Below are positions 19,163 through 60,485 of a DNA stretch of 64,000 nt, piece after piece; within the stretch, counting starts at the first letter, position 1; each line of letters opens with the position of its first letter. Where the stretch lies: positions 4,848-68,847 of the forward strand of contig CANGEV010000012.1 in assembly GCA_947452995.1 (NCBI GenBank), written 5' to 3'. This DNA comes from Chitinophagales bacterium. GTDB lineage: Bacteria > Bacteroidota > Bacteroidia > Chitinophagales > CAIODY01. Below the pieces are notes generated by a model. It saw only the letters and a program-made list of their open reading frames with translations. It had not been told where the DNA came from and made no database searches. A program made the position numbers and the translations under genes.

Positions 19163-21120
19163 TGCGAAATCTTGCCTATTTAACATTACTTCTATTTTTT
19201 TTTAGTGTCACATGTGAAACGATAAAGGGGCAGCAGGCAAGTGATCTAACTTTTCCTATGCATATCAGTGTAAGTGCTGCTCCGACCAAAAAGATAAGCT
19301 TTAACTGGACGGCTGACACTAATTTTGCGACTATATCATTTTCCAAAAAATTAGTTTCGGCGACAACGTGGGGACCCACCAATACCTATAGCGGAACCAT
19401 TACAAACTATAATGACTTAGCAGTTCAGAAAGGACAGCGCTATGAATATCATATTCAAATTCAACGTAAACATTCACTGCCTACTGTTGATCAATATTAT
19501 AGTGGAGGCTTTGAAAGCAGCAATGAGAGCCTGTTTGGGCAAATGATTTTACTAATCGACTCCAACTATGCCCTACCCTTACAGAATGAACTGGTTCAAT
19601 TACAACTCGATCTCACGGCAGATGGTTGGTGGGTACATCCTCTTTATGTAAATCGAAATAGAAGTGTTGCAAGTATCAAGCAACAATTACAAGCCTTGTA
19701 TTATCAACGTCATGGACTTCCAAGTGCCTTAATGATTGTTGGGCATGTGCCAGTGCCTTATAGCGGCAACCTAAATCCAGACGGGCATCCTGATCATCAA
19801 GGCGCATGGCCTACTGATTTAGTTTACGGCGATATGGATGGAGTTTGGACTGATATAAGTGTCAATACAACAAGTGCAAGCAGAAACGAAAATCAGAATA
19901 CCCCGGGTGATGGCAAGTATGATCAAAGTAATTTACCGAGTGATGTTGAATTAAGTACGGGGCGAATTGATTTTTATAATTTGCCTAGTTTTAGCACATC
20001 GGATACTAGCCTCTTACAGCAATATTTAAATAGATTACATCAATTTAAAATTGGGCAGATTAATTATCGCAAGCGCATGTTGATTGATGATAACTTCGGC
20101 TATTTCAGCGGAGAGGCCTTCGCTCAAAATGGTTATAGAAACGGCTATGCTTGTGTTGGTGGCGATAGTACGCGTACTGGAGACTACTTCACCACTTTAG
20201 CTTCTCAAGATTATTTATGGTCGTACGCATGTGGCGGAGGAAGTTATACAAGTGCTGCAGGAATAGGAACTACAGCAGACTTTTCAAATGTCCCTTTAAA
20301 CCATGCATTCACGATGAGTTTCGGCTCCTACTTTGGGGATTGGGATGCCAGTGATAATTTTATGCGCGCTGCCCTAGCTGGTTCGAATGGCGCTTTCACG
20401 AATTGTTGGGCGGGTCGACCGAATTGGTATTATCATTATTTAAGTGCGGGAATGCCGATGGCTAAGGCCATTGCTGCCAGTCAAAATAATAGTTTTTTAT
20501 ATAATCCGTTAAATTACGGATACTATGGTATTCACATGGAATTCCTAGGCGACCCAAGCTTGCGCCAAGACTATTTTTCACCTTGTCAGAATTTAAGTAC
20601 ACAAGCCATTTATAGTAATAGTCGCGTACAGTTAAATTGGTCGGCTAATCTAGGTAATAATGTTTTGGGCTATGAAGTATTACGTGCGAAAAGCATTCAA
20701 GATTCTTTCTATGTGATTTCACATGGTTTGGTTGGCAGTTCGAATTTTATTGATAGCTTTCCTTTATTGGGTACAAACGTCTATCAAGTACGTGCGATTC
20801 GTTTAGAGCAGAGCATTTGCGGTAGTTATTACAACCACTGTTTAGGTATATTTGATTCGATTGCCAATATCACGCCGAACGGAATAGAGTCTTTAGCTAA
20901 CACAGCATGGAGCGTTTATCCAAGTAGTATTACGGATAATGAATGTTGGAATTTAAGTGGCAGCTACCCTACTTCTAGCCATTTCAAATTGTATGATGAA
21001 ACGGGGGTATTACTTTGGAATGGAAATGCAGAAACGAATCGTATACCGTTTATACCTAAGCGTGCAGGCGTTTACTTCTTAGAAGCGAATGGTGTAACGA
21101 AGAAGGTTTTGAAGTTTTAG
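19162..21120 (+). CDS. T9SS type A CTD secreted protein with FN3-like domains and an unassigned central domain
   Basis: The ATG overlaps the cvpA TGA by 1 nt. It has a signal peptide. FN3-like segments (ISFNWTAD..., VQLNWSAN...YEVLRA) flank a roughly 340-aa core. The C-terminus (WSVYPSS...AGVYFLEANG..KKVLKF) is CTD-like. Confidence 0.65.
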   Translation: MRNLAYLTLLLFFFSVTCETIKGQQASDLTFPMHISVSAAPTKKISFNWTADTNFATISFSKKLVSATTWGPTNTYSGTITNYNDLAVQKGQRYEYHIQIQRKHSLPTVDQYYSGGFESSNESLFGQMILLIDSNYALPLQNELVQLQLDLTADGWWVHPLYVNRNRSVASIKQQLQALYYQRHGLPSALMIVGHVPVPYSGNLNPDGHPDHQGAWPTDLVYGDMDGVWTDISVNTTSASRNENQNTPGDGKYDQSNLPSDVELSTGRIDFYNLPSFSTSDTSLLQQYLNRLHQFKIGQINYRKRMLIDDNFGYFSGEAFAQNGYRNGYACVGGDSTRTGDYFTTLASQDYLWSYACGGGSYTSAAGIGTTADFSNVPLNHAFTMSFGSYFGDWDASDNFMRAALAGSNGAFTNCWAGRPNWYYHYLSAGMPMAKAIAASQNNSFLYNPLNYGYYGIHMEFLGDPSLRQDYFSPCQNLSTQAIYSNSRVQLNWSANLGNNVLGYEVLRAKSIQDSFYVISHGLVGSSNFIDSFPLLGTNVYQVRAIRLEQSICGSYYNHCLGIFDSIANITPNGIESLANTAWSVYPSSITDNECWNLSGSYPTSSHFKLYDETGVLLWNGNAETNRIPFIPKRAGVYFLEANGVTKKVLKF

Positions 21121-46131: not shown

Positions 46132-46767
46132 ATGAAAATTGAAATTTGGAGCGACATCGCCTGTCCTTTCTGTTATATCGGTAAACGCCGTTTAGAACAA
46201 GCACTAGAAGCTAGTCCTGAAATTCTCCACCCAAATATTATTTATAAAAGTTATCAATTAGCCCCACAGCTGCAAGTAACGGAGCCAACTTCACTAAACG
46301 AATACCTGGCCAAGGTAAAAGGTATTAGTATCGAACAGGCTAAAGAAATGAATGCGTACGTTAGCAATATGGCGACTGAAGTTGGATTACATTTCCATAT
46401 CGAGCAAGCTCAATTAGCAAATACCTTCAACGCACATCGATTTTTACATCTTGCGAAATCACTTCAATGCCAATTGAAGGCCAAAGAACTTCTGTTACAA
46501 GCATATTTTTGCGAAGGAAAAAATGTCGATCAGCTGGAAACATTTGTTAATATCGGAGAAAAACTAAACATCCCCCATTCTACAATCACGGATTATTGGC
46601 ATTCGAAAAATTTCGAAGAAGATGTTCGCCTTGATATGTATGAAGCACAGCAGTATCAAATCACTGGTGTTCCACTGTTTTTATTTAATGAACGAATTGC
46701 TGTATCTGGCGCGCAACCCCTCGATGTCTTCCTACGAGCACTAAAGCGTGCTAACGAATTATCGTGA
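46132..46767 (+). CDS. DsbA-family (FrnE-like) thiol:disulfide oxidoreductase
   Basis: 211 aa with no signal peptide and the N-terminal motif IEIWSDIACPFCYIGKRRLE. Confidence 0.8.
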   Translation: MKIEIWSDIACPFCYIGKRRLEQALEASPEILHPNIIYKSYQLAPQLQVTEPTSLNEYLAKVKGISIEQAKEMNAYVSNMATEVGLHFHIEQAQLANTFNAHRFLHLAKSLQCQLKAKELLLQAYFCEGKNVDQLETFVNIGEKLNIPHSTITDYWHSKNFEEDVRLDMYEAQQYQITGVPLFLFNERIAVSGAQPLDVFLRALKRANELS

Positions 46768-49700
46768 AATCACCTTTTAAAAATCGGTCCGACGTATCTA
46801 ATCCAAAGCGATAGATGATCATATACATATAGCTTCCAATCTCTTGATCTTGACCATTAAAACGCCCATCCCAAGGAGCATTTGCGTCTGTCGTGAAATA
46901 AACACGTTGCCCCCAACGATTATATAACTCCATGCGATATTGAATTAAATTCGCAGCATTTGAAAAGATCGGACCAAATGTATCATCCAATCCATCACCA
47001 TTCGGACTAAACGCATTCGGCAACATCATCCATCCCTCACATAAATTTATCACCATCATTGCATCATGTGCTTCGCAGCCGTAATTATTCATTACGCTCA
47101 CACTATAAGTACCCGATGAATGCACCGCGTAATTCTGCCCCGTGCTTCCGTCCTGCCATATAATTTGCTGAAAAGCAGGTACAGATAAGGTTACAGGTGT
47201 TTCATCCAAACACAACTCACGATCTGGACCGAGAGATACGCTTATTAAACCTACCACTGGCACAAATATCGAAGCGGTATCCGTACATCCTGCTGCATCT
47301 TGCACCCCAACTGAATACCATGCTTCACCCGTTAATCCCCTATTACTATTCGTTCCTAATCCACCTGGCGTCCAAAAATAATTATAGGGCCCATTTCCAC
47401 TTAATACCTGCACCTCCACTTTTCCTCGTCCTTGCGCACAAGTGTCAGGTCCCATTGCTAACGCTATTTGAGCATCTACAGACGCTGCAATATTAAATGT
47501 ATCCTTAACATTACAATTCTTCGCATCCGTCAAGCTCATAATATAATTTCCAGGCGACAAACTATTAAGTATAGCACTAGTACTCAAGGCTGGATTCCAA
47601 ACAAAGCTATAAGCAGGCGTACCTCCATTTGCAATCACTTGTATACTTCCATTATTCTTCGCACAACTGGTCGATTTAACAGTTGAAGTATATTGTAAAG
47701 CACTTGGCTGTGTTATCGTAACACTAGCTTGCTTAACACAATTACCGGCATCTATCACATTGAAGACATAGGTACCAGCTTGTACATTGATTAAATTCAA
47801 ATTATTTGAAACGGAAGGATTCCAAGTATACGTATATGGCGTGAAGCCTCCACTAATCGCCGCTGTCACGGAGCCGTTACTTCCACCAAAGCATGAAATA
47901 TTTTGTTGATTGCTAAACGCAATAGCAAGCGTATTATTGATTGCAGGGACAGTGACCTGCACGCTATCCTTGCAGCCAACAGCATCTATTACAATGACCT
48001 TATAAACGCCTGCAGCAAGTCCACTTGCCACTGCCTGTGTACTTACAACCGGGTTCCAATTGAAACTATATGGACTGGCGCCTCCACTTATATTTAATGA
48101 AATCTTACCCGTATGATTAGCACAGGTATCAGCCTTCACTGTAAAACTAATCGTAGGTCCACTAGAACTTAAAATCTTTGCAGTATCTAAGATCGTACAG
48201 CCCTTCGTATCACTGAGTGTTAAAATATAATTGCCGGGAGATAGATTCGATGCTGTATTTGTAGAAGAAACAGCAGGGTTCCAAGAATAGGTATAGGTTG
48301 GTGTCCCGCCATTAGCTGTCCAGCTGATGCTACCATTATTTTTTCCGCAAGTAGTTGTTTGAATAGTAGGACTTAAAGCTAAAGCCGCTGGCTGCGTCAA
48401 GGTATAGGTGGCATTCGCCACACAATTATGTGCATCGGCAACCGATACGCTATAACTTCCAACACCTAAATTAGAGGGGTTTGAGCCACTTAAGGTATTT
48501 GGCGACCAGGTGTAGGTATAAGGTGTTTGGCCACCACTCGCACTTAAACTGATACTTCCATTTGTTGCGCCATAACATGTAGGATTGCTTGTATTATTTG
48601 CGATGCTAATGGTATTGATAATATTCGGAACATATAATGAAAATGTATCTATACAACCAAAGGTATCTACTACAGATATATGATAAAACCCAGAAGCAAT
48701 ATTCGTTACAAAATTACAATTCGTCACATTCGGCAGCCAATTATACGTATAGAATGGCGTACCTCCGCTCATCACAAAGCTCAACGCACCATTGGAATTA
48801 TTGCAGTAGGCAGCAGTTATTTGCGTGGTATGACTGAATGCTTGCGGTGCTTTAATGTGTACGGTATCGCTTATACTACAGGTCCCCGCTTGCGAAACAG
48901 TAACAATGTAAGTACCTACACCTAAATTTTTAATGGTATCCGTATTTTGCGTAGGACTAGTATTCCACAAAATAGATGGAGAAACAGTATTTCCAGTGAT
49001 ATGTACCATCGCCCAAGCATCATGACCGCCCGGACAAGTTACATTCATAGAATCAATACCCGTCCCTAAAACAGCGATTTGTTTAATGACCGTATCACTA
49101 CCGCTACAAGGATTCGTTGCGATTAGTTGAACATAATAAACTCCCGGCGCACTGAACTTATGCGTAGGATTTTGAAGACTCGAAACATTGGAAGTACCAG
49201 TACTAGGATCACCAAAATTCCAAGACCAATTGTTCGGACAATTAGTAGACGCATCGGTAAATGCAAAGTTAGCTTTCGGAGAACACAACCAAGAAAAGTT
49301 TGCCACATACTTTGGCGCATTCATGATGTAAATATCATCTATAGCTATCCCATCAAAGGCATTACAAGTAGTTCCTGCGCCGAAGGTAAATCGAAAAATT
49401 ACATTTGGCTGACCTGCTAAATTACTCATGCAATGCTTTGCCACCACCCAAGCGCCTGAGCCAAAACCACCCGTACAAGGACTCGTTGCCGATTGCAAAG
49501 TACCCGACCAGCCATCGCGCGTTGTTGCTAATGTGGTGAGATAATTAATCGGCGTATAGTTGTACCAATTTGCAGTATAGCAATCAACCGGATCATTATA
49601 CGCTCCGACATTCGTCCATGAGGTCCCATTATTCAAGGAATATTGCAGGTTACCACCATCATATTTTCGTTCGGACGACCAATAAATTTTAAATTCAATA

Positions 49701-50017
49701 TAGGGATGAGCGAGGTTCGTGAAATCGAAACAAGGGCTTTGTAGCCAAGAGCGTTCGCCATTGGTATAGGCAGTACCCGTAAGTCCACCCGTAACCCAAC
49801 ATTTTAACCCTTGTCCGGCTACAGTAATTACAGACTTGCTAGGCGAACCCCAAGCCCAGGATGTACCTGTTCCGCCTGTTGTCCAGGCAGGTAATGTTTC
49901 AAAAGTTTGATGATATGGATAGGCCGTGACACATTGTGCTTGTACAGGATTTCTGTTCACCCAAAAGGCAAAACATAAGATTCCCCACAATACATGCCAA
50001 AGGGCCTGCTTTTTCAT
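46751..50017 (-). CDS. T9SS type B C-terminal-domain protein with MAM/LamG-like N-domain, PKD domain and about 8 SprB-type repeats
   Basis: Signal peptide. PKD motif WNFGDPSTGTSN..NPTHKFSAPGVYYVQL. Repeated units contain GG(T/Q)(P)(Y/F)(T/S)Y.W.P. The C-terminus reads PNAFSPNGDGLDDTFGP...LKGDFTIIR, the gliding-motility-associated CTD (type B) signature. Confidence 0.85.
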   Translation of the reverse strand: MKKQALWHVLWGILCFAFWVNRNPVQAQCVTAYPYHQTFETLPAWTTGGTGTSWAWGSPSKSVITVAGQGLKCWVTGGLTGTAYTNGERSWLQSPCFDFTNLAHPYIEFKIYWSSERKYDGGNLQYSLNNGTSWTNVGAYNDPVDCYTANWYNYTPINYLTTLATTRDGWSGTLQSATSPCTGGFGSGAWVVAKHCMSNLAGQPNVIFRFTFGAGTTCNAFDGIAIDDIYIMNAPKYVANFSWLCSPKANFAFTDASTNCPNNWSWNFGDPSTGTSNVSSLQNPTHKFSAPGVYYVQLIATNPCSGSDTVIKQIAVLGTGIDSMNVTCPGGHDAWAMVHITGNTVSPSILWNTSPTQNTDTIKNLGVGTYIVTVSQAGTCSISDTVHIKAPQAFSHTTQITAAYCNNSNGALSFVMSGGTPFYTYNWLPNVTNCNFVTNIASGFYHISVVDTFGCIDTFSLYVPNIINTISIANNTSNPTCYGATNGSISLSASGGQTPYTYTWSPNTLSGSNPSNLGVGSYSVSVADAHNCVANATYTLTQPAALALSPTIQTTTCGKNNGSISWTANGGTPTYTYSWNPAVSSTNTASNLSPGNYILTLSDTKGCTILDTAKILSSSGPTISFTVKADTCANHTGKISLNISGGASPYSFNWNPVVSTQAVASGLAAGVYKVIVIDAVGCKDSVQVTVPAINNTLAIAFSNQQNISCFGGSNGSVTAAISGGFTPYTYTWNPSVSNNLNLINVQAGTYVFNVIDAGNCVKQASVTITQPSALQYTSTVKSTSCAKNNGSIQVIANGGTPAYSFVWNPALSTSAILNSLSPGNYIMSLTDAKNCNVKDTFNIAASVDAQIALAMGPDTCAQGRGKVEVQVLSGNGPYNYFWTPGGLGTNSNRGLTGEAWYSVGVQDAAGCTDTASIFVPVVGLISVSLGPDRELCLDETPVTLSVPAFQQIIWQDGSTGQNYAVHSSGTYSVSVMNNYGCEAHDAMMVINLCEGWMMLPNAFSPNGDGLDDTFGPIFSNAANLIQYRMELYNRWGQRVYFTTDANAPWDGRFNGQDQEIGSYMYMIIYRFGLDTSDRFLKGDFTIIR

Positions 50018-50144: not shown

Positions 50145-53100
50145 TTAGTGCTGTATTTCAACAAGTTGATTACTGATAATACTCGCATCCTTTAAAATAA
50201 CCACGCGATAGGTACCAGCCTGCATGTTTGAAACAGGAATATTTAATTGCTCAATCCCTTGCACAAATTCTTTCACCATGACTAATTGATTTAAGCTATT
50301 ATAGATTTCACAATACATACCAGCGACGTTAGGACTGTTGTAACGAAGCATTAAATTATCGTGAGCAGGATTTGGATATAAGCTAAATGAATTCTTCACC
50401 GCAGTTTTCAATGCCATTATTGAAGAATAAACAGGCAATTCAAAGTTTGAATTTGATACAGCCTTTATTCGATAATAATTCAAGCCTGCAAAAGGAGAGC
50501 TATGCAAATACGAAAACTCAACTTGTCCTTTTTTAATTTGGCTCGACTCTATTCTTGCAATTTTAACAAAGTGAATTCCATCCGCAGAATGTTCGATTTC
50601 GAATTCACGATTCTCAGTGTACATACTCATTTTCCAATTAATTGCTATACCGCTCTTCTGTGCAACAGCAATGTTAGAAATAAATTGAATAGGCAATACA
50701 GAAGCATTAGAGATAATAATGGAAGAGGTTGCAACTGCTCTACAGCCGTATACATCTGTCATAGTATACATTACCGCAAAGGTGTCCACCGTACTTCCTG
50801 TTAAAGTGATATTACCGCTCAGAGAGTCGATCAGTAAACCAGGATCTGCACTGAATATACCACCACTAAATCCATTAACCGTTGCATAGGCTGTTCCATG
50901 TGCGGGATAAGGACTACCCACATAACTAACGGTAGCCGTTGGTAAAGCATTCACAGTGATAGTCGCTGTTTGTACTGCAGACATATCGACACCTGCATGT
51001 ACCGTATCTCCATTATCTTTAATATAGATACTTAAGTTAGCTACGCCGCTTTTTCCTGTAGCTAGTGCAAATGCTAAGTTTCCTGAAGCATCAATACTAG
51101 GCTGCGTAGAGAATAAAGAATTATTATCATTTGTTACAATGAACGTAAGCGTTTGCGTTGATTCATTACTTGGTCCTGTGGACATCCCTGAAGCCCATCC
51201 ATTCACAATATTAACTCCACTATTTTCGCAAACGGATAGATTAGTTCCCTTGCTAAAAGTAGGCGCATCGTTTACCGGTAAAATTGTCAAATAAATAGTC
51301 CCAACATTAGACGTTAAGGTATCAAAATCTTTTACAGTATAGGTCATACTTACTGCGCCATAAAAATTAGCCGTCGGTGTAAAAGTTACATAACCAGGAT
51401 AATTTGTAGGACTGGTAATGCTCCAAGTACCATTTGCAGTCACTAGTGTTCCAGTTAAAGCCAAAGTGCTCGGGTCAATCATATTATTATCGACGTCATT
51501 TGAAGTAACATCAAACGAAATAACATTATCCTCATAACCTGTTCGGTTATCATCATTCGCAGTAGGTGTACCTAGCGGTAAGATGGTTATATCAATATGG
51601 GTCATTGAAGATGTAGCACCACTCTTATCATTCACCGTATAATGAACTTGCGTTAGTGGTCCAACTGGAGTCGAGAAAGTATAAGTAAAAGTTACATTGC
51701 CATAAATATCTACAGTATAGGTTCCTTCCCCAGCAACAGTATAGCTAGTTTGCTGCCCTGCAGTATAAGGATCCAAATCAACAGATGTTGAATCGATTGC
51801 ATCGTCCATATCTGAATCATTTGTCAATACATTAAACGTGACAGAAGCAACAGATGCAGTAGCGGTAGTACTACGAGCATCGCTCACGGTCGTTGGAGGA
51901 TCATTTACTGGAATCACAGTAACGATAATTAAACCACTATCCGAAACTAATCCGAGATTATCCTTAATCGTATAGGATTTAGGTGTTGCAGTGCCATTAT
52001 AGTTTGCTACTGGCGTGAAGGTAACTACACCCAAAGCGTTCACAGTATACGTGCCTTGTCCACTCACCGTATAGGTTGTTTGAATACCTGCAGTTAATGG
52101 GTCTAAATCTACTTTACTAGAATCTACATACCCATCATAATCATAATCATTCAAAACAATAGTATAGGTCACAGGGACATCTTCATTCGTAGTTAGGGCA
52201 TCATCAATGGCGAATGGAGCTGAGTTCACCCAATTTACCACAACGGTAATATTGGCGATGTTTGAAACTAAACCAAGTACATCTTTAACAGTATAAGGGA
52301 TTGTTACTGTACCATAATAATACGGATCAGGTGTGAACGTAACGTTGCCTAACATATCCACATAAAACTGTCCTTGACCAGGCGCATAATAAGCCCCTTG
52401 AATACCTGTTGAATTCGGATCTAAATCAACACGCGCCACGTTAATCGCATTCGTACCATAATCATTATTAGTTACAGAGAAGGTAACGCTCACATTTTCA
52501 TTTGTACTTGCATTATCATTTACAGCGGTTGGTGCTCCGGCAGGAACTACTGTCACATCAATGGTAGTTACATTTGATGTCAATGACACACTATTATCTA
52601 CTGTATAATACAATGTTGTAACATTTCCATAGAAAGTGGAAACCGGTGTAAATGTAAGGGTTGCGCCACTTAAGGTAAATGTACCCTGACCTGTCAAGGT
52701 ATAGCTAGATTGGGTTCCAGCCGTATACGGATCTAAATCAATACTACTATTCACAAGCGTACCATCCACATTAATATCATTCGACAACAAACTAATATTC
52801 ACTGCAGTATTTTGCGTTGTCGAAGCGGTATTTGCAATCGCGACAGGCGGTGCATTTACATGCGTAACATTGATAGTTACAGTACCGGCTATAGTACCTA
52901 GGCTTGCATCATTGGCTTTAAAAGTAAAGGTCGTTAATGCATTACCATAAACGTTTACTGGAGGATCATATGTCAAGTACACAATATCAGAAGCTAGAAT
53001 TGTTTGTCCAACCGTAACTGCAACACCATTTAAATAAAGGGTACCTTGACTAGGCAAAGTAGCGATTGTGATTGATTGCAATGCATCACTTTCAACATCT

Positions 53101-56100
53101 GTATAAGGAAAATCTGCAGCAACAAAGTGATACAAGACATTCTCTGGAGTGGTGATCGTTGAGTTCGTAGCAACAGGAGGATCATTCACTGGTGTTATTG
53201 TAATGGTTATCGTCCCTGAATTGGAAGTAAGATTGTCATTATCCTTCACAGTATAGGTGATGGCAACGGTTCCATTATAATTTGCAACAGGTGTGAACGT
53301 AACGACACCAGATGAATTAACAGTGAAAGTCCCCTTTCCTACTGATGTGAAGCTTGTTTGTGTTCCTGCAGTAGCAGGATCTAAATCAACCGTGCTGATA
53401 GTTACAGTTCCATCAACGTCATTATCGTTTGTGACAATATTTAATGTAACCGCATTATCTTCTGTTGTAGTCGTTGCATCATTGTTGGCTACTGGTGCAG
53501 TAGGAATTTTGATGGCGAAGTTTAGGTTGTTCTCGTTGTTCGTTAAAGCAGTAGTTATTCTATAGCGCAATCTACCATCCGCAACACCTGCTGTACCCGT
53601 AATAGTATTACCAATATCATTATTAACCTCCCCAATGAAAGTGGCTCCCGTAGCTCCCAAACTAGGATTCGCAGATGCGTAGGTAGTGGTGGTCGGATAG
53701 TTGGTAGTTGATACGACAAAATGGTATGTTGTACTGTTTACCGGAGAAAAATTAATTTGCCAAGTACCGTTTGAAGCAACGGCTGCTGTAGCCTTCACCA
53801 ATCGATTGCTAGTAGGGGTAGTACTTGAATCGACCATCGAAACATATAATTGTGTTCCGTTAATAGAACCTATTCCCGTTCCATCAACTTTCCCCGGAGC
53901 TGCGGTACCATTGATATCCCAATAAACATTTCCCATAATTGGTATAATAGCACCAGCACAGTCCGAAACTTGAATCGCTAAGGAAGCTGGTGTACCTTGA
54001 CCACACGCATTCACAGGCGTTGCAACTACGTTATAAGAACCACTCTGCCCTAGGTTATTAAAACCTACAACAATTGAACTAGTTCCTTGTCCGCTTAAAA
54101 TCGTTCCACCTGTTGGTGCTGTCCAGTTGATTGAAGTAGTATTCGTAAAACCACTCACAGTGAACCCTGCCCGCGTCATTGTATCGCAATAGGCGTTATT
54201 TCCAATATGATAATTAACATACATTTGCACAGCATCCACATAAGCAACAGCATTGTTCGAACCAATATTTACTCTGTAACGAATACCGAAACGTGGCATG
54301 TTAACAATCGTTGGTGTTAAAGTCGCCGTGGTTGCTCCCCACATATTCGTTGCCCCTCCATATGTTGTAACAGCATCTGTTGTTCCCCAATTGGTAGTGC
54401 TTACCGTTAAATTACTTCCAATTGATGCCCGCGTCAAAAAGTTGACCAGACTGATACGATTGTCTTGGATTGTTCCACTCGCCTTTTTCTCAACTTGAAC
54501 CGTAACTCCATCAATAGTTGCATTGGTTGGTATATTAAACCCAAATCCATAAAAATAAATATAGCCTGAATTACCTGTAGTAGAGTTGGTAACAGATGTA
54601 TAAGCATTATCGCTAACAAATGCGTTATTTATGGTAGACCATATAGGCGATGTAGTTGTAGTTGAATCCTTTGTACATAAATTGTACCCTGCAGTACCTG
54701 CTGTATAAGAAGGCGCGTTCAAGCTCGCCGTAATCACACCTGTTCCCATCGTATTTGAAATGGTAACTGTAGCAGGATTACCTGTGATACTTGAAGCTGT
54801 ACAACCCACCGCATCTGTTACACTTAACAAAGTATAAGATGTCGTTAAAGAAGGCGTTACGCTGATGTTCGAACCCGAAGTATAATTTGAAACTGTACCT
54901 ACCCCATTATTAATCGATAAAGTATAGGGGGATGTACCGCCAGTAATAGCTACATTCAATCGGTTATTACAATTCGCAGAAGTAGCACTCAATACGGCTG
55001 ATGAAATGCCTGGATTGAATGTCACAACTACATCATCATACGTTGTCGGACAACCCGGACTACTCAAAGTCCAACGTAAAGTATACGTATTGCCGGAAAC
55101 CCCATTGAAGGTCGTGTTATATAAGGTCGTAGTAGATGTATTCCCAACACCGAATCCACCACCCGTACCTGAAACAATAGACCAAACGCCACTTGTGCCT
55201 GCAGGGTTATTACCACCTAAGGTGATCGTCGTAACGCCACATGTACTTGTACCCGTTGCATCCGCACCTGCATTCGCAATATTGATATCGGCAGGGAAAT
55301 TATAAATGAAATGACAACCCGTCCCTGTAATATAAAGGTTACCAGTATAAGTTCCAGCATTGGCTGCCGTTACATTACTGATTGTTGGATTTTGCAAAGT
55401 AGAGGAGAAGCTGTTCGGCCCCGTCCACAAATAAGTTGCTGCCGGAGAAGATGGACCATTAAATTGAATCGTTCCTCCTGAACAAATTGGCGCATTCGCT
55501 GTCATCGTTGGAACAGTACATCCTCCTGTAAATACAGGCGTCTGAGTAGCTCCTGAAATCAAACAGCCGTATTGATTGAAAATACCTGGTGTAGATGCGT
55601 TGTCATAGGTATTTCCAGAAACGTTACCCGTCCCAACCATATGCGCACTATTATCAATCTTATTATCGCAATATAAGTACACACAGTCGTTGCTTACGCG
55701 TACCTTAAACTTAAACTGCGTACTATCCGTTCCATAAGGAGAATTGTTCACCTGACCACCTAAAAAGCCATTCGCACTAGTACCTACACGTACTTTAACA
55801 ACCTTTGAAGCTGCAATATAGTCGGCTTGATCATCGCCTACTGCATCTGTTTTTGCACCAGCATTAGGTCCGTATGTAACTGTAATAGAGTTAGGGACAT
55901 AAATTGCATTCCCTTCAATAGTATCAGTTATGTAGGTATTTATTGAAGGATCTGAACCAATGTTCATCCCTACCACTGTATACTCCAACGTATCTCCCGG
56001 AGATGCATTCGCTGCACTTGGATGCGTCACATTACGCACACGAACTGCACTTCGTAAATCTGGTTCATACACGTCAATCGCAGACGTTACAACCTGCGTT

Positions 56101-57101
56101 AAAAAGATCTCACCACCGGTCGTCTGACGAATAATACCAGATACCGCATTATTTCCGATATAATTCTTTGTACTATTATTCGGCACAAAGATATTCGCAT
56201 CATAACCCAAGTTATTATTGTAAGATGGATTCCGCAATGGCGTCAATACACCATTCTTCGAAATCGTACTGTTGAACATATCTGAAGTAGGATGTATCGC
56301 ATCTGATAAATTCACAAAAGCAGAAGCGCCTTTAAACATCAACTGATCTCCTGTTAAAGAACGGTCACCATCATATATAACCAAGCCTAATTCAAAATTA
56401 ATCGGACCAGAAAGAGGCGTTTGAAACCCAGAAATAGGGATATCGACTGTCGTTACACCTCCACCACCGACGTTTGCCAAACCATCAAAAACAGTCAGGT
56501 TACGCATGGTTTGTAGATTATCCTTATAAATTACTACGATGGTCCAACCGCCAAACAAGTTTTTACCCGCTACATCCACCGCAACATTCGCAACAGTATA
56601 AATATCGTTTAAGGTACCTGCTTGAACAATGGAAGTGATATCCTTGAAACAATGATACGTCTTGTAACCTACCGTATTATCCTTAAAGTAATCTGCTGTA
56701 AGCGTTTGATACGAACCACTATTTACTTTCAACTTAACCTGACTACGTGTGGCAAAATTCTCATCACCCGTTGAACAGTCTGCTCCCCAATACAATCCAG
56801 CCCAGGTAATCTCTGTACAGGTCGGCAAATTCAACTGATCACTGCTCGACATGAAGGTGGTTGGATCACTATCGATGTCAACATAATCATTCGTATAGTT
56901 ATTGTCATATCCTGTTCCACTTGGTGGCATCTCATTCTGCACAATATTGGCAGGAGTAGCTCTAGAAGCCGTGTTGGATAAATACAATATACCGCCCTTT
57001 TGCGTGACAGTTTTTCGGATGGTAAATGGAGTAATTACCTGAGCATTTGCAATACCCAAAGTGATAACCATTAAAATTAAAAGTAAGTGTAAACGTTTCA
57101 T
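50145..57101 (-). CDS. giant surface adhesin-like protein with cadherin-like ('tandem-95'-type) repeats and T9SS type A CTD
   Basis: 2318 aa with a signal peptide. The N-terminal region of about 480 aa is unassigned and beta-rich. Ig-like modules follow. About eight roughly 100-aa repeats are encoded at about 50940-53520, bounded by VND(A/P)P (e.g. PVANNDATTTTEDNAVTLNIVTNDNDVDGT...TPVNDPP). The C-terminus reads SLYPNPAHDNLML...AGTYRVVIL. Confidence 0.85.
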   Translation of the reverse strand: MKRLHLLLILMVITLGIANAQVITPFTIRKTVTQKGGILYLSNTASRATPANIVQNEMPPSGTGYDNNYTNDYVDIDSDPTTFMSSSDQLNLPTCTEITWAGLYWGADCSTGDENFATRSQVKLKVNSGSYQTLTADYFKDNTVGYKTYHCFKDITSIVQAGTLNDIYTVANVAVDVAGKNLFGGWTIVVIYKDNLQTMRNLTVFDGLANVGGGGVTTVDIPISGFQTPLSGPINFELGLVIYDGDRSLTGDQLMFKGASAFVNLSDAIHPTSDMFNSTISKNGVLTPLRNPSYNNNLGYDANIFVPNNSTKNYIGNNAVSGIIRQTTGGEIFLTQVVTSAIDVYEPDLRSAVRVRNVTHPSAANASPGDTLEYTVVGMNIGSDPSINTYITDTIEGNAIYVPNSITVTYGPNAGAKTDAVGDDQADYIAASKVVKVRVGTSANGFLGGQVNNSPYGTDSTQFKFKVRVSNDCVYLYCDNKIDNSAHMVGTGNVSGNTYDNASTPGIFNQYGCLISGATQTPVFTGGCTVPTMTANAPICSGGTIQFNGPSSPAATYLWTGPNSFSSTLQNPTISNVTAANAGTYTGNLYITGTGCHFIYNFPADINIANAGADATGTSTCGVTTITLGGNNPAGTSGVWSIVSGTGGGFGVGNTSTTTLYNTTFNGVSGNTYTLRWTLSSPGCPTTYDDVVVTFNPGISSAVLSATSANCNNRLNVAITGGTSPYTLSINNGVGTVSNYTSGSNISVTPSLTTSYTLLSVTDAVGCTASSITGNPATVTISNTMGTGVITASLNAPSYTAGTAGYNLCTKDSTTTTSPIWSTINNAFVSDNAYTSVTNSTTGNSGYIYFYGFGFNIPTNATIDGVTVQVEKKASGTIQDNRISLVNFLTRASIGSNLTVSTTNWGTTDAVTTYGGATNMWGATTATLTPTIVNMPRFGIRYRVNIGSNNAVAYVDAVQMYVNYHIGNNAYCDTMTRAGFTVSGFTNTTSINWTAPTGGTILSGQGTSSIVVGFNNLGQSGSYNVVATPVNACGQGTPASLAIQVSDCAGAIIPIMGNVYWDINGTAAPGKVDGTGIGSINGTQLYVSMVDSSTTPTSNRLVKATAAVASNGTWQINFSPVNSTTYHFVVSTTNYPTTTTYASANPSLGATGATFIGEVNNDIGNTITGTAGVADGRLRYRITTALTNNENNLNFAIKIPTAPVANNDATTTTEDNAVTLNIVTNDNDVDGTVTISTVDLDPATAGTQTSFTSVGKGTFTVNSSGVVTFTPVANYNGTVAITYTVKDNDNLTSNSGTITITITPVNDPPVATNSTITTPENVLYHFVAADFPYTDVESDALQSITIATLPSQGTLYLNGVAVTVGQTILASDIVYLTYDPPVNVYGNALTTFTFKANDASLGTIAGTVTINVTHVNAPPVAIANTASTTQNTAVNISLLSNDINVDGTLVNSSIDLDPYTAGTQSSYTLTGQGTFTLSGATLTFTPVSTFYGNVTTLYYTVDNSVSLTSNVTTIDVTVVPAGAPTAVNDNASTNENVSVTFSVTNNDYGTNAINVARVDLDPNSTGIQGAYYAPGQGQFYVDMLGNVTFTPDPYYYGTVTIPYTVKDVLGLVSNIANITVVVNWVNSAPFAIDDALTTNEDVPVTYTIVLNDYDYDGYVDSSKVDLDPLTAGIQTTYTVSGQGTYTVNALGVVTFTPVANYNGTATPKSYTIKDNLGLVSDSGLIIVTVIPVNDPPTTVSDARSTTATASVASVTFNVLTNDSDMDDAIDSTSVDLDPYTAGQQTSYTVAGEGTYTVDIYGNVTFTYTFSTPVGPLTQVHYTVNDKSGATSSMTHIDITILPLGTPTANDDNRTGYEDNVISFDVTSNDVDNNMIDPSTLALTGTLVTANGTWSITSPTNYPGYVTFTPTANFYGAVSMTYTVKDFDTLTSNVGTIYLTILPVNDAPTFSKGTNLSVCENSGVNIVNGWASGMSTGPSNESTQTLTFIVTNDNNSLFSTQPSIDASGNLAFALATGKSGVANLSIYIKDNGDTVHAGVDMSAVQTATITVNALPTATVSYVGSPYPAHGTAYATVNGFSGGIFSADPGLLIDSLSGNITLTGSTVDTFAVMYTMTDVYGCRAVATSSIIISNASVLPIQFISNIAVAQKSGIAINWKMSMYTENREFEIEHSADGIHFVKIARIESSQIKKGQVEFSYLHSSPFAGLNYYRIKAVSNSNFELPVYSSIMALKTAVKNSFSLYPNPAHDNLMLRYNSPNVAGMYCEIYNSLNQLVMVKEFVQGIEQLNIPVSNMQAGTYRVVILKDASIISNQLVEIQH

Positions 57102-57118
57102 ATGATACTTAAAGGTGA

Positions 57119-57460
57119 TTATAAGTTGATATTAATCGATTCTATCTGCCCCTCATCTGTCGTCAGTTCGATTGTATAAGTATGACCCGCCTGAAGCGAA
57201 CTAACATCCATACTTGCAGAATATGGCAAGCCAATTAACTCCACTGAAAAATACTTAATCAATTGGTGCTGGGAATTATAAATATGAACGCTTCCTTGAT
57301 GGCCCTGCTTTCCAGCATACGAAATCTGAGCAATCGTATTTGCCCCTTGATGCACAATCCCAACATGCAAATTTGTATTCACACTTGTTTGAGATTTACC
57401 ATTTGTTAAAAACATTACAAATAATATCTGTAATACAAGTAGACTTTTTAATCTAGACAT
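57119..57460 (-). CDS. small secreted protein consisting of signal peptide + T9SS-CTD-like domain
   Basis: 113 aa with the signal peptide MSRLKSLLVLQILFVMFLTNGKSQ. Its C-terminal half (VHIYNSQHQLIKYF...SSLQAGHTYTIEL) parallels the CTD of the adjacent adhesin (CEIYNSLNQLVMV...SNMQAGTYRVVIL). It lies 17 nt upstream of that gene. Confidence 0.6.
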   Translation of the reverse strand: MSRLKSLLVLQILFVMFLTNGKSQTSVNTNLHVGIVHQGANTIAQISYAGKQGHQGSVHIYNSQHQLIKYFSVELIGLPYSASMDVSSLQAGHTYTIELTTDEGQIESININL

Positions 57461-57525
57461 AGAATTTTATTTATCAATTGTACATAATTTGAACCCACAA
57501 AATTACCATTTGTTGAATTTATTTT

Positions 57526-57543
57526 AATTGACTTAGGTCAATT
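57526..57543. promoter_or_regulatory. perfect palindrome in divergent intergenic region (candidate regulator binding site)
   Basis: AATTGAC-ttag-GTCAATT, 66-83 nt upstream of the 57460 start. A Bacteroidota -7-like box TAATTTTG (minus strand, 57498-57505) lies between it and the gene. Confidence 0.3.
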
Positions 57544-57727: not shown

Positions 57728-58147
57728 TTGAAAAAACATTTAGCTAATACTTTTATGTCAATCCGCAAATTCTCCCCAATAGTACTAGTCGCAATTGCTT
57801 GTTATTTCCTAACCTTTACAAGCTGCGAAAAAACCTTTACTGGTCAACTTGTTTTTTGGTGGGATACTGCCTTCGAACAGCAGATGAATACGATTGGAGT
57901 AAGTAACGTAGCAGTCTATGAATCAGGCGCCCTAAAAGGATCTTTAGATATCGCTACCAAACAATTTACTGCAGCGCCTGCATGTAATGATGCAAGTAGT
58001 GTTACCGTTACCAAAGATCTTGGTGCTGCCACCACCGGTACTTTCTCTTATACGTTTAAATTAAGAGATGCGTCTAATAATGTTATCAGCACTACGAGTG
58101 ATAATATTACACTTCAAGATGGTTGTAATACCTATCAATTGCAGTAA
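57728..58147 (+). CDS. small putative lipoprotein, function unknown
   Basis: The ORF-track start is TTG; an alternative ATG at 57755 gives MSIRKFSPIVLVAIACYFLTFTSC, which has a lipobox-like FTSC. It lies 79 nt upstream of a TonB-dependent receptor gene. Confidence 0.55.
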   Translation: MKKHLANTFMSIRKFSPIVLVAIACYFLTFTSCEKTFTGQLVFWWDTAFEQQMNTIGVSNVAVYESGALKGSLDIATKQFTAAPACNDASSVTVTKDLGAATTGTFSYTFKLRDASNNVISTTSDNITLQDGCNTYQLQ

Positions 58148-58226
58148 TCCTACTCGCCGTAGTATTTACCGATTTTGTAATTAAGAACTAGTAGAAAATC
58201 CTAACTTACAGCCTTAATCATTCCAT

Positions 58227-60485
58227 ATGAATAAAGGCCTATCTATCGTATTGGTTTTTCTCAACCTATTCATCTTTACTTCTGCCAACGCACAAAGACA
58301 GATAATTCACTTCAATCTATACGATCAAGTTTCTCTTGAGCCACTACAAGGGGCTATATTACAAAACGCCGACGCCACAATCGGTGCAGAAACAGACATA
58401 AATGGACGGGGGCAAATTGAGCAAGCGAATCTCCCTGCAACACTTACCCTGCAGGTTCATTTAATGGGTTATGAAAGCTATTCATTTAATATCAAGATCG
58501 ATACTTCCCTTCATCTTCAACAAATCGGATTACAGAAATTAAATAATGAACTAGGGACTGTTCAAATAAACACACTCCGCACCAATACACGTATCGAAGA
58601 CGCTGCAACTAAAGTGGAAGTAATCGGGATGGAAGAAATTGGAGAGGAAACAACCCTTCAACCTAGCAATCTGACGAGTCTTTTAGGCGACTTATCCTAT
58701 ATACATGTTCAACATCAAAGTGGTGCTTCGGGAAATAATATGGTGCGTATGCTCGGCCTCAATACCAATTATACGCAAATCCTACGCGATGGGCTTCCTA
58801 GCTTGGATGGTTTAAGTTCTAACTTAGGAATATTAAGTGCACAGCCACTCGATTTACAACAAGTCGATGTGATCAAAGGATCTGCCTCTACCCTCTATGG
58901 CGGTGGCGCTATTGCAGGGATTATCAATTTGATTTCACCCACTCCGTCAGATTCTCCTACGACAAGCCTATTGCTGAATGTGACTTCTCTTTCGGAGAAG
59001 AATGTTCATTTGTTCACCTCTTGGAAAAAAAATAAAATAGGCTATACCCTCTTTGTTGCAAGCAATAATGCGGTTGAGAAAGACCTTAACAGTGATGGTT
59101 TGAGCGATGTCCCAGAAAATCATCAATTGATTATTCATCCTCGCTTTTTTATAGACATCAACAAAAAAAATGCACTTCGCGTAGGTATTCAAATACAACA
59201 AGACAATCGCAAAGGAGGTGACATGTTGGCTATCCAAGGATATAATGATCTTTTCTCCAACAACGCTTATCAACTATTTTTAACCACTTCGAAATCGGCT
59301 TTGGATTATCAATTAACTTCGAAATGGCGCAAAAACCAACTATTCACGTTCAAAGGAATACTTACAAATACGCAACAATTGCAAGATGAAGCCGCAAGGG
59401 GTAAAATACAATTTCAACAAAGTGGCCTGTTTGCAGAATTTTCTAATTTGAGCGTACTAAAAAAAGGAAATCTGATTGAAGGTTATTCAAAAAGAGCCTA
59501 TAACGCCTATCAAGGCTTATACGAACAATATACCACCCACTCCTTTTTTATTCAACACACAAAAAATTGGACGAGCTGGCTAACTACCGAAGCCGGTTAT
59601 CGTATTGATATGGTGAACGGCAATGGAATGATTGGTATAACAAGTAACAAAATTCACCAGCTACCTCGATTAAGTATTTATTTGCATCCATCAGAAAAAT
59701 GGAGTTTTAGAATTGGCGGTGGAAACGGTTATCGCAATCCAAGTATTTATACGCCTGAATTACTTGAAAACCCTTTAAACGCCTATTCATCGATCTTTCT
59801 TTACAATGCCAAACAACAATTTGGAACCTTAACTGAAGAAAGAAGTCAAGGCATTCAAAGTGATTTTAATTACCACTATCGCAAAGGGATTTTTGGATTA
59901 CAATTCAACCAAGCTTTTTATTATACACAAATTAGTAATCCAATTACTGTCAATTATCAATATCAAAGAGTAGACGGTGTATATCCGCAACAGCATATCA
60001 TCATCAACAATAATCCAAATTCAATTTACTCGCAAGGAAGTGACACTTATTTGCGCTTAAATTTGGATGAACTAGAATGGTATTTAGGTTATAACTATAC
60101 GGAGGTGGCCTATATGAACGCGACGAAGTATAAGCCTATCACTTTATTCCCACATCATAAGTTTGCTTCTACGGTTTTATGGGAATTAGAAGGTGAATGG
60201 AAAATCGGTCTGGAGGCTGCTTGGCAAGGCTTACAATATATTAATAATGAAAATTATCAAAAGGCACCTGACTATTGGTTCTTTGCAGCGATGATTAGTA
60301 AAATGTGGAAGAATAGTACCTTAACCTTGAACGTTGAAAATTTGATGAATTACCGCCAATCACGCGTGCAAGCAATGTATATCGGTAGTTTGAATACAGG
60401 TAGTACCAATCCAAATCTATTACCAGTATGGGGACCACTAGAAGGACGTGTGATTAACTTAAGCTATCGAATCAATTTTCGTTAA
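58227..60485 (+). CDS. TonB-dependent receptor (carboxypeptidase-regulatory-like N-domain)
   Basis: 752 aa with a signal peptide (FIFTSANAQ). It has an N-terminal CarboxypepD_reg-like segment, plug motifs (VEVIGMEEIG, VIKGSASTLYGGGAIAGIINLI) and a barrel. Confidence 0.8.
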   Translation: MNKGLSIVLVFLNLFIFTSANAQRQIIHFNLYDQVSLEPLQGAILQNADATIGAETDINGRGQIEQANLPATLTLQVHLMGYESYSFNIKIDTSLHLQQIGLQKLNNELGTVQINTLRTNTRIEDAATKVEVIGMEEIGEETTLQPSNLTSLLGDLSYIHVQHQSGASGNNMVRMLGLNTNYTQILRDGLPSLDGLSSNLGILSAQPLDLQQVDVIKGSASTLYGGGAIAGIINLISPTPSDSPTTSLLLNVTSLSEKNVHLFTSWKKNKIGYTLFVASNNAVEKDLNSDGLSDVPENHQLIIHPRFFIDINKKNALRVGIQIQQDNRKGGDMLAIQGYNDLFSNNAYQLFLTTSKSALDYQLTSKWRKNQLFTFKGILTNTQQLQDEAARGKIQFQQSGLFAEFSNLSVLKKGNLIEGYSKRAYNAYQGLYEQYTTHSFFIQHTKNWTSWLTTEAGYRIDMVNGNGMIGITSNKIHQLPRLSIYLHPSEKWSFRIGGGNGYRNPSIYTPELLENPLNAYSSIFLYNAKQQFGTLTEERSQGIQSDFNYHYRKGIFGLQFNQAFYYTQISNPITVNYQYQRVDGVYPQQHIIINNNPNSIYSQGSDTYLRLNLDELEWYLGYNYTEVAYMNATKYKPITLFPHHKFASTVLWELEGEWKIGLEAAWQGLQYINNENYQKAPDYWFFAAMISKMWKNSTLTLNVENLMNYRQSRVQAMYIGSLNTGSTNPNLLPVWGPLEGRVINLSYRINFR

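Follow-up and report, generated by a model that had tools for sequence, protein, structure and literature searches.

A conserved two-gene module of Bacteroidota links a cargo-less, CTD-like small protein to giant fibrillar adhesins with a DUF3344-like head

The window analyzed here, a stretch of 64,000 nucleotides of DNA from a Chitinophagales bacterium, carries on its minus strand a small gene encoding 113 residues together with the gene for a large fibrillar adhesin (Table 1). According to the first-pass annotation the small ORF ends 17 nt before the start of the 2318-aa adhesin gene on the same strand, and both the ORF list and the sequence are in agreement with this. The sequence likewise bears out a signal peptide with only about 90 residues following it, as well as the missing YPNP motif, since no PNP motif was found when the small protein was inspected. 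Its description as cargo-less is also appropriate, considering that the entire product consists of a signal peptide, about 7 residues and a single domain.

Table 1. Features of the small gene, its upstream region and the partner adhesin gene, with positions in the window
Feature	Position	Strand	Details and basis
Small gene (cargo-less, CTD-like beta-sandwich)	57119..57460	minus	ATG to TAA, 113 aa plus stop; ORF list and sequence
Predicted signal peptide, residues 1-23 (MSRLKSLLVLQILFVMFLTNGKS, then Q)	57392..57460	minus	Read from sequence
Linker, residues 24-30 (QTSVNTN), the sole 'passenger'	57371..57391	minus	Family alignment; variable in length and sequence
Predicted CTD-like 7-stranded beta-sandwich, residues 31-113, to the last residue	57122..57370	minus	AF2, Por_Secre_tail, hhalign
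Spacer between small gene and adhesin gene, 17 nt	57102..57118	minus	Same length and near-identical sequence in L004 (TCACCTTTAAG...)
Partner gene, 2318-aa fibrillar adhesin	50145..57101	minus	Pfam/NCBIfam matches
Adhesin head, residues 21-540, DUF3344-like then DUF11-like	55482..57041	minus	Annotation of homologs
Adhesin type A CTD, residues 2241-2318	50148..50381	minus	Por_Secre_tail, residues 2241-2307, 31.4 bits (above cutoff 27)
TAATTTTG, consensus match to the Bacteroidota -7 motif TAnnTTTG	57498..57505	minus	45 nt upstream of the ATG
Perfect palindrome TTGACCTAAGTCAA in the putative promoter region	57528..57541	minus	Unique in the window (0.01 expected by chance)

With a positively charged n-region (MSRLK), a hydrophobic core, G-x-S at positions -3/-1 and Gln at +1 (GKS followed by Q), the N-terminus of the small protein reads as a Sec/SPase I signal, and the mature protein after the predicted cleavage would comprise about 90 residues. 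The C-terminus reads ...GQIESININL and does not contain Lys. Structure prediction by AlphaFold2 with the family alignment yielded a confident 7-stranded sandwich (strands 31-38, 41-48, 55-61, 67-74, 82-85, 94-101 and 106-112) with a pLDDT of 89 overall and of 94-98 in 10-residue blocks over residues 31-113, while the signal peptide was modeled as a lone helix (residues 3-17) and the pLDDT dropped below 50 at residues 23-27 in the linker region. Foldseek comparison against the PDB returned generic Ig/FN3-like folds, with 3d33 among the matches and without singling out CTD structures. The top match, the archaeal pilin 8fk7, was discarded as an artefact of the combination of a signal-peptide helix with an Ig sandwich. 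A sequence search of the PDB with the family profile gave no match.

A second Chitinophagales MAG (L004) contains an ortholog of 121 aa that is also located 17 nt before the ortholog of the 2318-aa adhesin, the best tblastn segment of the latter showing 88% identity. Identity between the two small proteins amounts to about 50%, and the two indels that separate them are both in frame. Comparison of the two small genes gave a pN of 0.35 versus a pS of 0.73 and a dN/dS of about 0.18, which is a rough value since dS is saturated, and by this comparison the small gene is under purifying selection. The locus of the window was assembled from other samples as well. Its small size, lacking annotation and HMM scores below the cutoffs would fit a chance ORF or a functionless, decaying duplicate of a CTD. 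However, the existence of about 100 homologs, a position kept in 12 lineages, the preserved frame, a pN well below pS and the confident structure prediction argue against this explanation, which we consider to have next to no probability and which in our judgement is refuted by the conservation data. The small gene is confirmed as a real gene with a real protein product of the secreted type.

Conservation of a small ORF in front of adhesin orthologs, a point raised in the first-pass annotation, turned out to be strongly positive. The small gene was located 8-31 nt upstream of an adhesin gene encoding 2100-4013 aa and on the same strand in all 12 lineages with readable flanks (window, L004, L005, L006/7/20, L008/9/21, L010/11, L012, L013, L014, L015, L016 and L017), while the genes further upstream were unrelated between loci. 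A metagenome scan contributed five loci, and those with downstream sequence agree with this synteny. Together the two genes form a conserved module that is present in Chitinophagales, Flavobacteriaceae and other Bacteroidota and ties the small gene to the adhesin family independently of the CTD type of the adhesin, as detailed below.

Spacers of 8-31 nt leave no room for a terminator or promoter, and co-transcription of the small gene and the adhesin gene is therefore likely. The distribution of TAnnTTTG, the -7 promoter box of Bacteroidota, is consistent with such an arrangement: in 10 of the 12 module loci the motif occurs in the 150 nt preceding the small gene, and only 3 of 11 loci have it within the small gene or the spacer. 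The palindrome TTGACCTAAGTCAA in the putative promoter region of the window is conserved in L004 only and may represent a lineage-specific operator.

A word-indexed protein search with the single sequence as query returned the small protein itself only. An exhaustive phmmer search of 1.8 billion representatives identified about 30 small proteins of 110-180 aa. Two further, large phmmer matches were dropped as repeat or low-complexity artefacts, namely P0002 (1816 aa, with 9 matches on TVYIYNADHQLIRV) and P0027 (an acidic repeat protein). The follow-up profile search resulted in 86 clusters, all of them small proteins, and the family comprises about 100 homologs. Nearly all clusters are nameless or listed as "hypothetical protein", three carry unrelated automatic JGI names, and the source names point to Bacteroidota, none of the named matches stemming from a cultured organism. 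Members share a common plan of a signal-like N-terminus, which is hydrophobic throughout the family, a linker variable in both length and sequence, and a single domain of 82 residues. This domain starts at residues 29-98 among complete members, and its end coincides with the C-terminus of the protein in 93 of 100 family HMM matches, including the window protein.

The architecture of signal peptide, linker and CTD-like domain, along with the acidic, Asn-rich stretch that often precedes strand 1, could also be understood as that of a minimal surface peptide, i.e., an ordinary T9SS cargo with the linker as passenger that would be released or lipid-anchored after removal of the CTD. We regard this as highly improbable, because conservation is lowest in the linker, which is only about 7 residues long in the window protein, and highest in the domain that would supposedly be discarded.

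The reading of the product as a T9SS sorting domain holds at the level of the family, while the window protein on its own stays below the curated cutoffs. In a Pfam scan of the window protein at E<=10, Por_Secre_tail (PF18962) was the sole match, covering residues 42-106 with 15.1 bits (E 0.028; cutoff 27). TIGR04183, the model suggested for this comparison in the first-pass annotation, did not match the window protein at E<=10 but matched 21 of the 30 family members tested at E<1. Por_Secre_tail was matched by 26 of these 30 at E<1 (best E 5e-7) and by one of them at E<=5e-6, which roughly corresponds to the gathering score. When the family alignment was compared with four adhesin type A CTDs by hhalign, homology was detected over the full length with a probability of 92% and an E of 6e-7, and 70 columns were aligned across strands 1-7.

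Closer examination of the motifs that characterize type A CTDs revealed a mixed pattern. PNP (motif B) is absent from the family consensus, in which strand 1 reads L-V-L-x-I/V... where CTDs show YPNP. The GxY motif (motif D) is retained, with frequencies of 93% for G92 and 100% for Y95 among 54 non-redundant members, and its equivalent in the window protein is AGHTY with a one-residue insertion. Of 100 family members, 38 have a Lys among their last 8 residues, in most cases at the very end, and the window protein lacks it. In type A CTDs a Lys close to the C-terminus is near-invariant and functionally important, and the classical motifs specify the fold without contacting the translocon, binding being plastic and shape-based (Lauber et al. 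2024, PMC10994853). Loss of PNP alone therefore does not preclude export. Similarly, loss of the Lys is not diagnostic of export competence in this lineage, since the CTD of the window adhesin, which scores above the Por_Secre_tail cutoff and carries YPNP and GTY, also lacks a Lys near its C-terminus. On the basis of these profile comparisons, the small protein belongs to the type A CTD superfamily as a divergent member without a passenger, with homology at the family level.

The sequence strings that had been aligned by eye between the small protein (VHIYNSQHQLIKYF and SSLQAGHTYTIEL) and the adhesin tail (CEIYNSLNQLVMV and SNMQAGTYRVVIL) are all present, and BLASTP aligned the same stretches, though weakly, with 37% identity over 49 columns, 22% gaps and an E of 0.002 for this single comparison. 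The proposal that the small gene is a paralog of the sorting domain of the neighboring adhesin was not borne out. Among the five complete modules extracted (window, L004, L016, L020 and L021), the small domain was no more similar to the CTD of its own neighbor than to the CTDs of other lineages. The family HMM identified exactly one member per locus and scored 93-129 bits on every small gene, compared to at most 12.9 bits on one adhesin CTD, while the others were missed at E<=10. With no excess of similarity to the own neighbor and scores of 93-129 versus at most 13 bits, an origin as paralog of the neighboring tail was rejected; a recent copy is ruled out by these sequence comparisons, and the small proteins represent an old family of their own.

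Identity of the adhesin CTDs is only 16-28% between the three distant lineages with type A tails (window/L004, L020 and L021). The adhesin tail of L016 is a type B CTD (CHU_C, 71 bits), and the small gene is still present at this locus; a PorP/SprF gene was not found within 0.8 kb after this adhesin. These observations bear on the possibility that the small protein is a secretion decoy or regulator, in which case a free CTD would occupy PorV or the translocon, or signal like PorA, and thereby tune or time the export of the adhesin. Homology to the CTD superfamily and the absence of cargo are compatible with such a competitor, as is the precedent of PorA, a small CTD protein in T9SS regulation whose CTD binds PorV (PMC7712824). 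A competitor would, however, need a CTD receptor in common with the adhesin, and the idea is therefore weakened by the presence of the small gene beside a type B CTD adhesin and by the divergence of the type A tails. Type B CTDs use PorP/SprF-type carriers and not PorV (PMC12618676). In addition, strongly conserved loops of its own would be needless for a generic decoy, a global regulator would not be expected beside one adhesin family in 12 of 12 cases, and PorA works via a FimH-like N-terminal domain that is absent from the small protein (PMC7712824). Overall, a function as decoy or regulator appears improbable.

The partner adhesin of the window matches Big_9, Cadherin_4/5, CshA_repeat, PKD_6 and Por_Secre_tail in Pfam as well as the tandem-95 repeat in NCBIfam. 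Downstream, the window encodes a second adhesin (1088 aa) that carries SprB repeats as well as a type B CTD and lies outside the conserved module. The head of the partner adhesin (502 aa) did not match any Pfam family at E<=10 or any PDB entry by sequence search, while its homologs at 38-59% identity carry the precomputed domains PF11824 (DUF3344) and PF01345 (DUF11). In fibrillar adhesins, DUF3344 has been listed as a candidate cluster of adhesive domains whose function is ambiguous (PMC9210967). All partner adhesins begin with the same head directly after the signal peptide (QVITPFTVRKTITQKGG..., QVITPFTVRKTITQKGGILYLSNT...), and residues 21-340 of this head are 49-97% identical (median 75%) over 11 lineages, compared to 29-65% (median 43%) for the small domain. 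The adhesin gene also evolves much more slowly than the small gene, with rough dN/dS values relative to L004 of 0.045 overall and 0.023 in the first 520 residues. Distances between heads and between small domains were correlated with a Spearman coefficient of 0.52 (55 pairs). Simple vertical inheritance of an operon would likewise be expected to produce such co-divergence of head and small domain.

As judged from these alignments, the conserved feature of the partner is the N-terminal DUF3344-like head of the adhesin and not its CTD type, and the earlier suggestion of a chaperone or adaptor for the adhesin can be refined accordingly, with the head as the putative point of contact. A more distant Daejeonella adhesin (L022) that is encoded after gldM-gldN and has a DUF3344-like head of 43% identity is not preceded by a small ORF. 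The head is therefore not always in need of this partner and the module is confined to a subclade.

Within the small domain, conservation peaks at four sites. The first, S47-F-N-G-N-E-G53, comprises the end of strand 2 and the b2-b3 loop, and the second, F73-E-L-I-K-x-P-Y-Y-A-S-V-D85, the end of strand 4, the b4-b5 loop and strand 5. The third includes G92/Y95 and L99/T101, while the fourth consists of G104/H106 in the b6-b7 turn. A divergent subgroup (SYAGKQG, ELIGLPYSASMD), which has the shortest linkers, consists of the window protein together with its two nearest relatives. Since the connections between strands are short, consecutive strands reverse direction and the b2-b3, b4-b5 and b6-b7 loops share a pole with the N-terminus. 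The strand order of the AF2 model, as distinct from its coordinates, would thus place the conserved loops at the pole where the passenger of an ordinary cargo is fused.

Our tentative proposal, held at somewhat less than even confidence, is that the product of the small gene belongs to the downstream adhesin as a dedicated accessory subunit, acts on the adhesin head and is exported by the T9SS. The two genes would be co-transcribed from a promoter upstream of the small gene, and Sec export followed by cleavage of the signal peptide would leave about 90 residues that are essentially one sandwich of the type A CTD superfamily. This sandwich would be passenger-less and would display the family-specific loops SFNGNEG (SYAGKQG in the lineage of the window), ELIKSPYYASVD and GxH at the passenger-attachment pole. 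The loop-bearing pole would bind the conserved N-terminal DUF3344-like head of the adhesin non-covalently, while the remaining sandwich would act as a CTD and direct the small protein to the T9SS/PorV route. At the cell surface, the small protein would then dock, cap or escort the adhesin head. A dedicated accessory subunit working on the head is the most economical reading, and we infer its mechanism, including the binding to the head and the T9SS export of the small protein, from sequence comparisons.

Regarding export itself, the retained CTD profile, the strict C-terminal placement of the domain and classical motifs that build the fold without translocon contact suggest that the small protein leaves through the T9SS, whereas the loss of Lys, the HMM scores below threshold and the occurrence of DUF3244 in a species without T9SS suggest that it does not. 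To our knowledge, Bacteroides thetaiotaomicron has no T9SS, and DUF3244 proteins with their related sandwich occur in this species; a CTD-like fold is therefore no proof of export. Several of these arguments are shared by an alternative in which the small protein is a periplasmic chaperone or holdase that binds the head or the extreme N-terminal strand of the adhesin at the Sec exit and preserves its export competence or prevents it from sticking until the T9SS takes over, with the CTD fold reflecting origin only. The synteny, the independence of CTD type and the conserved loops fit this alternative as well as they fit an exported partner, and it would be in line with a family that lacks PNP and the functionally important C-terminal Lys, with most members scoring below the CTD HMM threshold, with DUF3244 as a CTD-like stand-alone sandwich in a species without T9SS, and with the upstream position and tight spacing of the small gene, which ensure that its product is made first. 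On the other hand, the family is still recognizably CTD-like across deep divergence and always ends at the last strand, the loss of Lys is not diagnostic considering that the bona fide CTD of the window adhesin lacks it too, and a T9SS cargo chaperone of such architecture was not found in the literature. We also know of no T9SS cargo chaperone that combines a signal peptide with a single CTD-like sandwich. A periplasmic chaperone thus represents a possible but rather unlikely alternative to the exported accessory subunit.

A further extension of the exported accessory subunit would be a T9SS sorting domain provided in trans. The cargo-less CTD would bind the adhesin head non-covalently via its passenger pole and give a fibre of 2000-4000 residues a second, detachable handle on PorV or the translocon, which could assist the export of the distal end or hold the tip at the surface until release. 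We consider such a handle unlikely. The small gene is probably a dedicated, so far undescribed partner of the adhesin and not a copy of the adhesin tail. This is in line with the first-pass annotation, which was aware of no described role for stand-alone CTD genes: searches of the literature on DUF3244, DUF3344 and stand-alone or CTD-only proteins found no such role and no functional description of the module.

Among known systems, the closest relatives are the type A CTDs themselves (PF18962/TIGR04183), with which the small protein shares a 7-stranded sandwich that spans about 80 residues and forms the very C-terminus of a predicted Sec-exported Bacteroidota protein, the conserved GxY of its family and full-length profile-profile homology. 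In contrast to these CTDs, it is encoded by a separate gene, lacks a passenger, PNP and the conserved Lys in the last strand, and belongs to a family that has strongly conserved loops of its own and mostly stays below the curated cutoffs. DUF3244 (PF11589; structure 3D33, BVU_0276) is similar in being a small stand-alone Bacteroidota protein with a signal peptide and an Ig-like sandwich related to the CTD fold. The DUF3244 HMM matched 17 of 30 family members at E<1 (best E 1.5e-4) and did not match the window protein at E<=10, and the Foldseek match of the window protein to 3d33 was weak (E 4e-3, TM 0.45-0.54). We are aware of no linkage of DUF3244 to adhesins. Of the small CTD proteins described with a non-enzymatic role, PorA of Porphyromonas gingivalis (PGN_0123) comes nearest. 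It resembles the small protein as a CTD-type protein of accessory or regulatory function, with a CTD that interacts with PorV, but differs in its length of 246 aa, its FimH-like N-terminal domain and its participation in PorXY-SigP signaling (PMC7712824). A FimH-like N-terminal domain is ruled out for the small protein by the mere 7 or so residues between signal peptide and sandwich, and PorA, unlike the small protein, is not linked to one adhesin. The sequence relationship of the two lies at the level of the CTD superfamily.

Accessory genes adjoining a giant adhesin gene are represented by the sprCDBF operon, in which sprC, sprD and sprF accompany sprB. Accessory genes in operons of giant gliding or surface adhesins are described as needed for secretion or anchoring of the adhesin (PMC9143113, PMC12618676). 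The small gene resembles sprC, sprD and sprF as a putative accessory gene next to a giant adhesin, while PorP/SprF proteins differ from its product in being outer-membrane beta-barrels that serve type B CTDs. The Pfam scan of the small protein at E<=10 gave no PorP/SprF signal, and a sandwich of 83 residues cannot form a barrel, so the small protein is not a carrier of the PorP/SprF type. Small proteins that are encoded directly upstream of large polymorphic substrates and bind to their conserved N-terminal domains are familiar from the Lap proteins of T7SSb with LXG toxins and from Eag/DUF4123 of the T6SS, where the secretion signal is supplied or completed in trans. The likeness to Lap and Eag is one of analogy: secretion system, fold and phylum all differ, and an export signal in cis is already present on the adhesin. 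In current descriptions of type IX secretion, signaling is strictly in cis, with its own CTD on each cargo, and the PorP/SprF carriers of type B cargo are the only cargo-specific T9SS helpers known to us. Against this background, the module presents a passenger-less protein of the type A CTD superfamily that is tied to one giant adhesin family, regardless of whether the adhesin signal is of type A or B. If the small protein is exported and binds the head, CTD folds would be able to work as separate adaptor subunits, and its 90 residues would provide a minimal probe of translocon/PorV recognition without PNP and the conserved lysine. If it does act as a sorting domain in trans, type IX secretion would gain its first example of a CTD adaptor that works non-covalently, and CTD-less proteins would become possible T9SS clients. 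With a periplasmic location, it would instead be the first chaperone dedicated to an adhesin of the T9SS. In both cases, the module provides a function-linked context for about 100 "hypothetical proteins" and for the uncharacterized DUF3344-like adhesin head.

The 2318-aa giant adhesin encoded downstream of the small cargo-less gene carries a type A CTD that scored above the Pfam cutoff and contains both the YPNP and GTY motifs. Its C-terminus (...SNQLVEIQH) lacks the near-invariant lysine known from the C-terminal region of type A CTDs, and this residue is likewise missing from the orthologous adhesin of L004, the module locus of a related Chitinophagales MAG. After a gap of 127 nt, the giant adhesin gene is followed on the same strand by a second adhesin gene, whose product combines PKD and SprB repeat domains with a type B CTD. 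The next minus-strand gene encodes a glycosyltransferase rather than a PorP/SprF carrier.

On the other side of the module, the small gene is flanked by a divergently oriented gene for a lipoprotein-like protein without a Pfam match and, beyond it, a gene for a TonB-dependent receptor-like protein. Both genes adjoin the module in L004 as well and were not observed next to it in the other lineages. A perfect palindrome, TTGACCTAAGTCAA, which occurs only once in the window, precedes the small gene at a distance of about 70 nt. It is kept in the L004 ortholog and was not found at any other module locus. The palindrome may represent a lineage-specific operator within a divergent promoter region common to the small gene and the lipoprotein-like gene.

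Features at the adhesin loci and their coordinates
Feature	Locus	Position	Description
DsbA-like gene	window	46132-46767	strand opposite to second adhesin
Second adhesin, 1088 aa	window	46751-50017	PKD, six SprB repeats, CHU_C
Giant adhesin CTD	window	50148-50381	type A
Palindrome TTGACCTAAGTCAA	window	57528-57541	14 nt
Conserved palindrome	L004	5557-5568	
Lipoprotein-like gene, 139 aa	window	57728-58147	divergent from small gene
TonB-dependent receptor-like gene	window	within 57728-60485 (range includes lipoprotein-like gene)	Plug, CarboxypepD_reg
L016 adhesin, 3053 aa	L016	10308-19469	type B CTD
Tandem repeat	L016	about 19840-20028	just 3' of adhesin
73-aa ORF	L020	19083-19304	signal peptide, second hydrophobic segment
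L022 adhesin	L022	1-3603	DUF3344-like head

At L022, a Daejeonella MAG locus encoding a more distant head-bearing adhesin, gldM and gldN, which belong to the T9SS core, lie directly upstream, and the intervening 457 nt contain no small CTD-like ORF. In the Flavobacteriaceae module (L020), a 73-aa ORF without a counterpart in the window begins 3 nt past the adhesin stop codon.

Many module contigs (L005, L007, L009, L010, L011, L012, L014 and L015) end inside the adhesin gene, presumably due to assembly breaks in tandem repeats, and databases therefore contain mostly N-terminal fragments of this family. All listed matches to the adhesin NTD were at most 590 aa long, with several of the NCBI-named ones labelled partial. 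One frame of the tandem repeat following the L016 adhesin gene consists of repeated MIIxIDQKDALSLD units. No PorP/SprF gene was found within 0.8 kb downstream of this adhesin gene. The L016 adhesin shares the head common to the module adhesin family and ends in a type B CTD (CHU_C, 71 bits), whereas the other members carry type A CTDs, which shows that the CTD type has been swapped within a single adhesin family.
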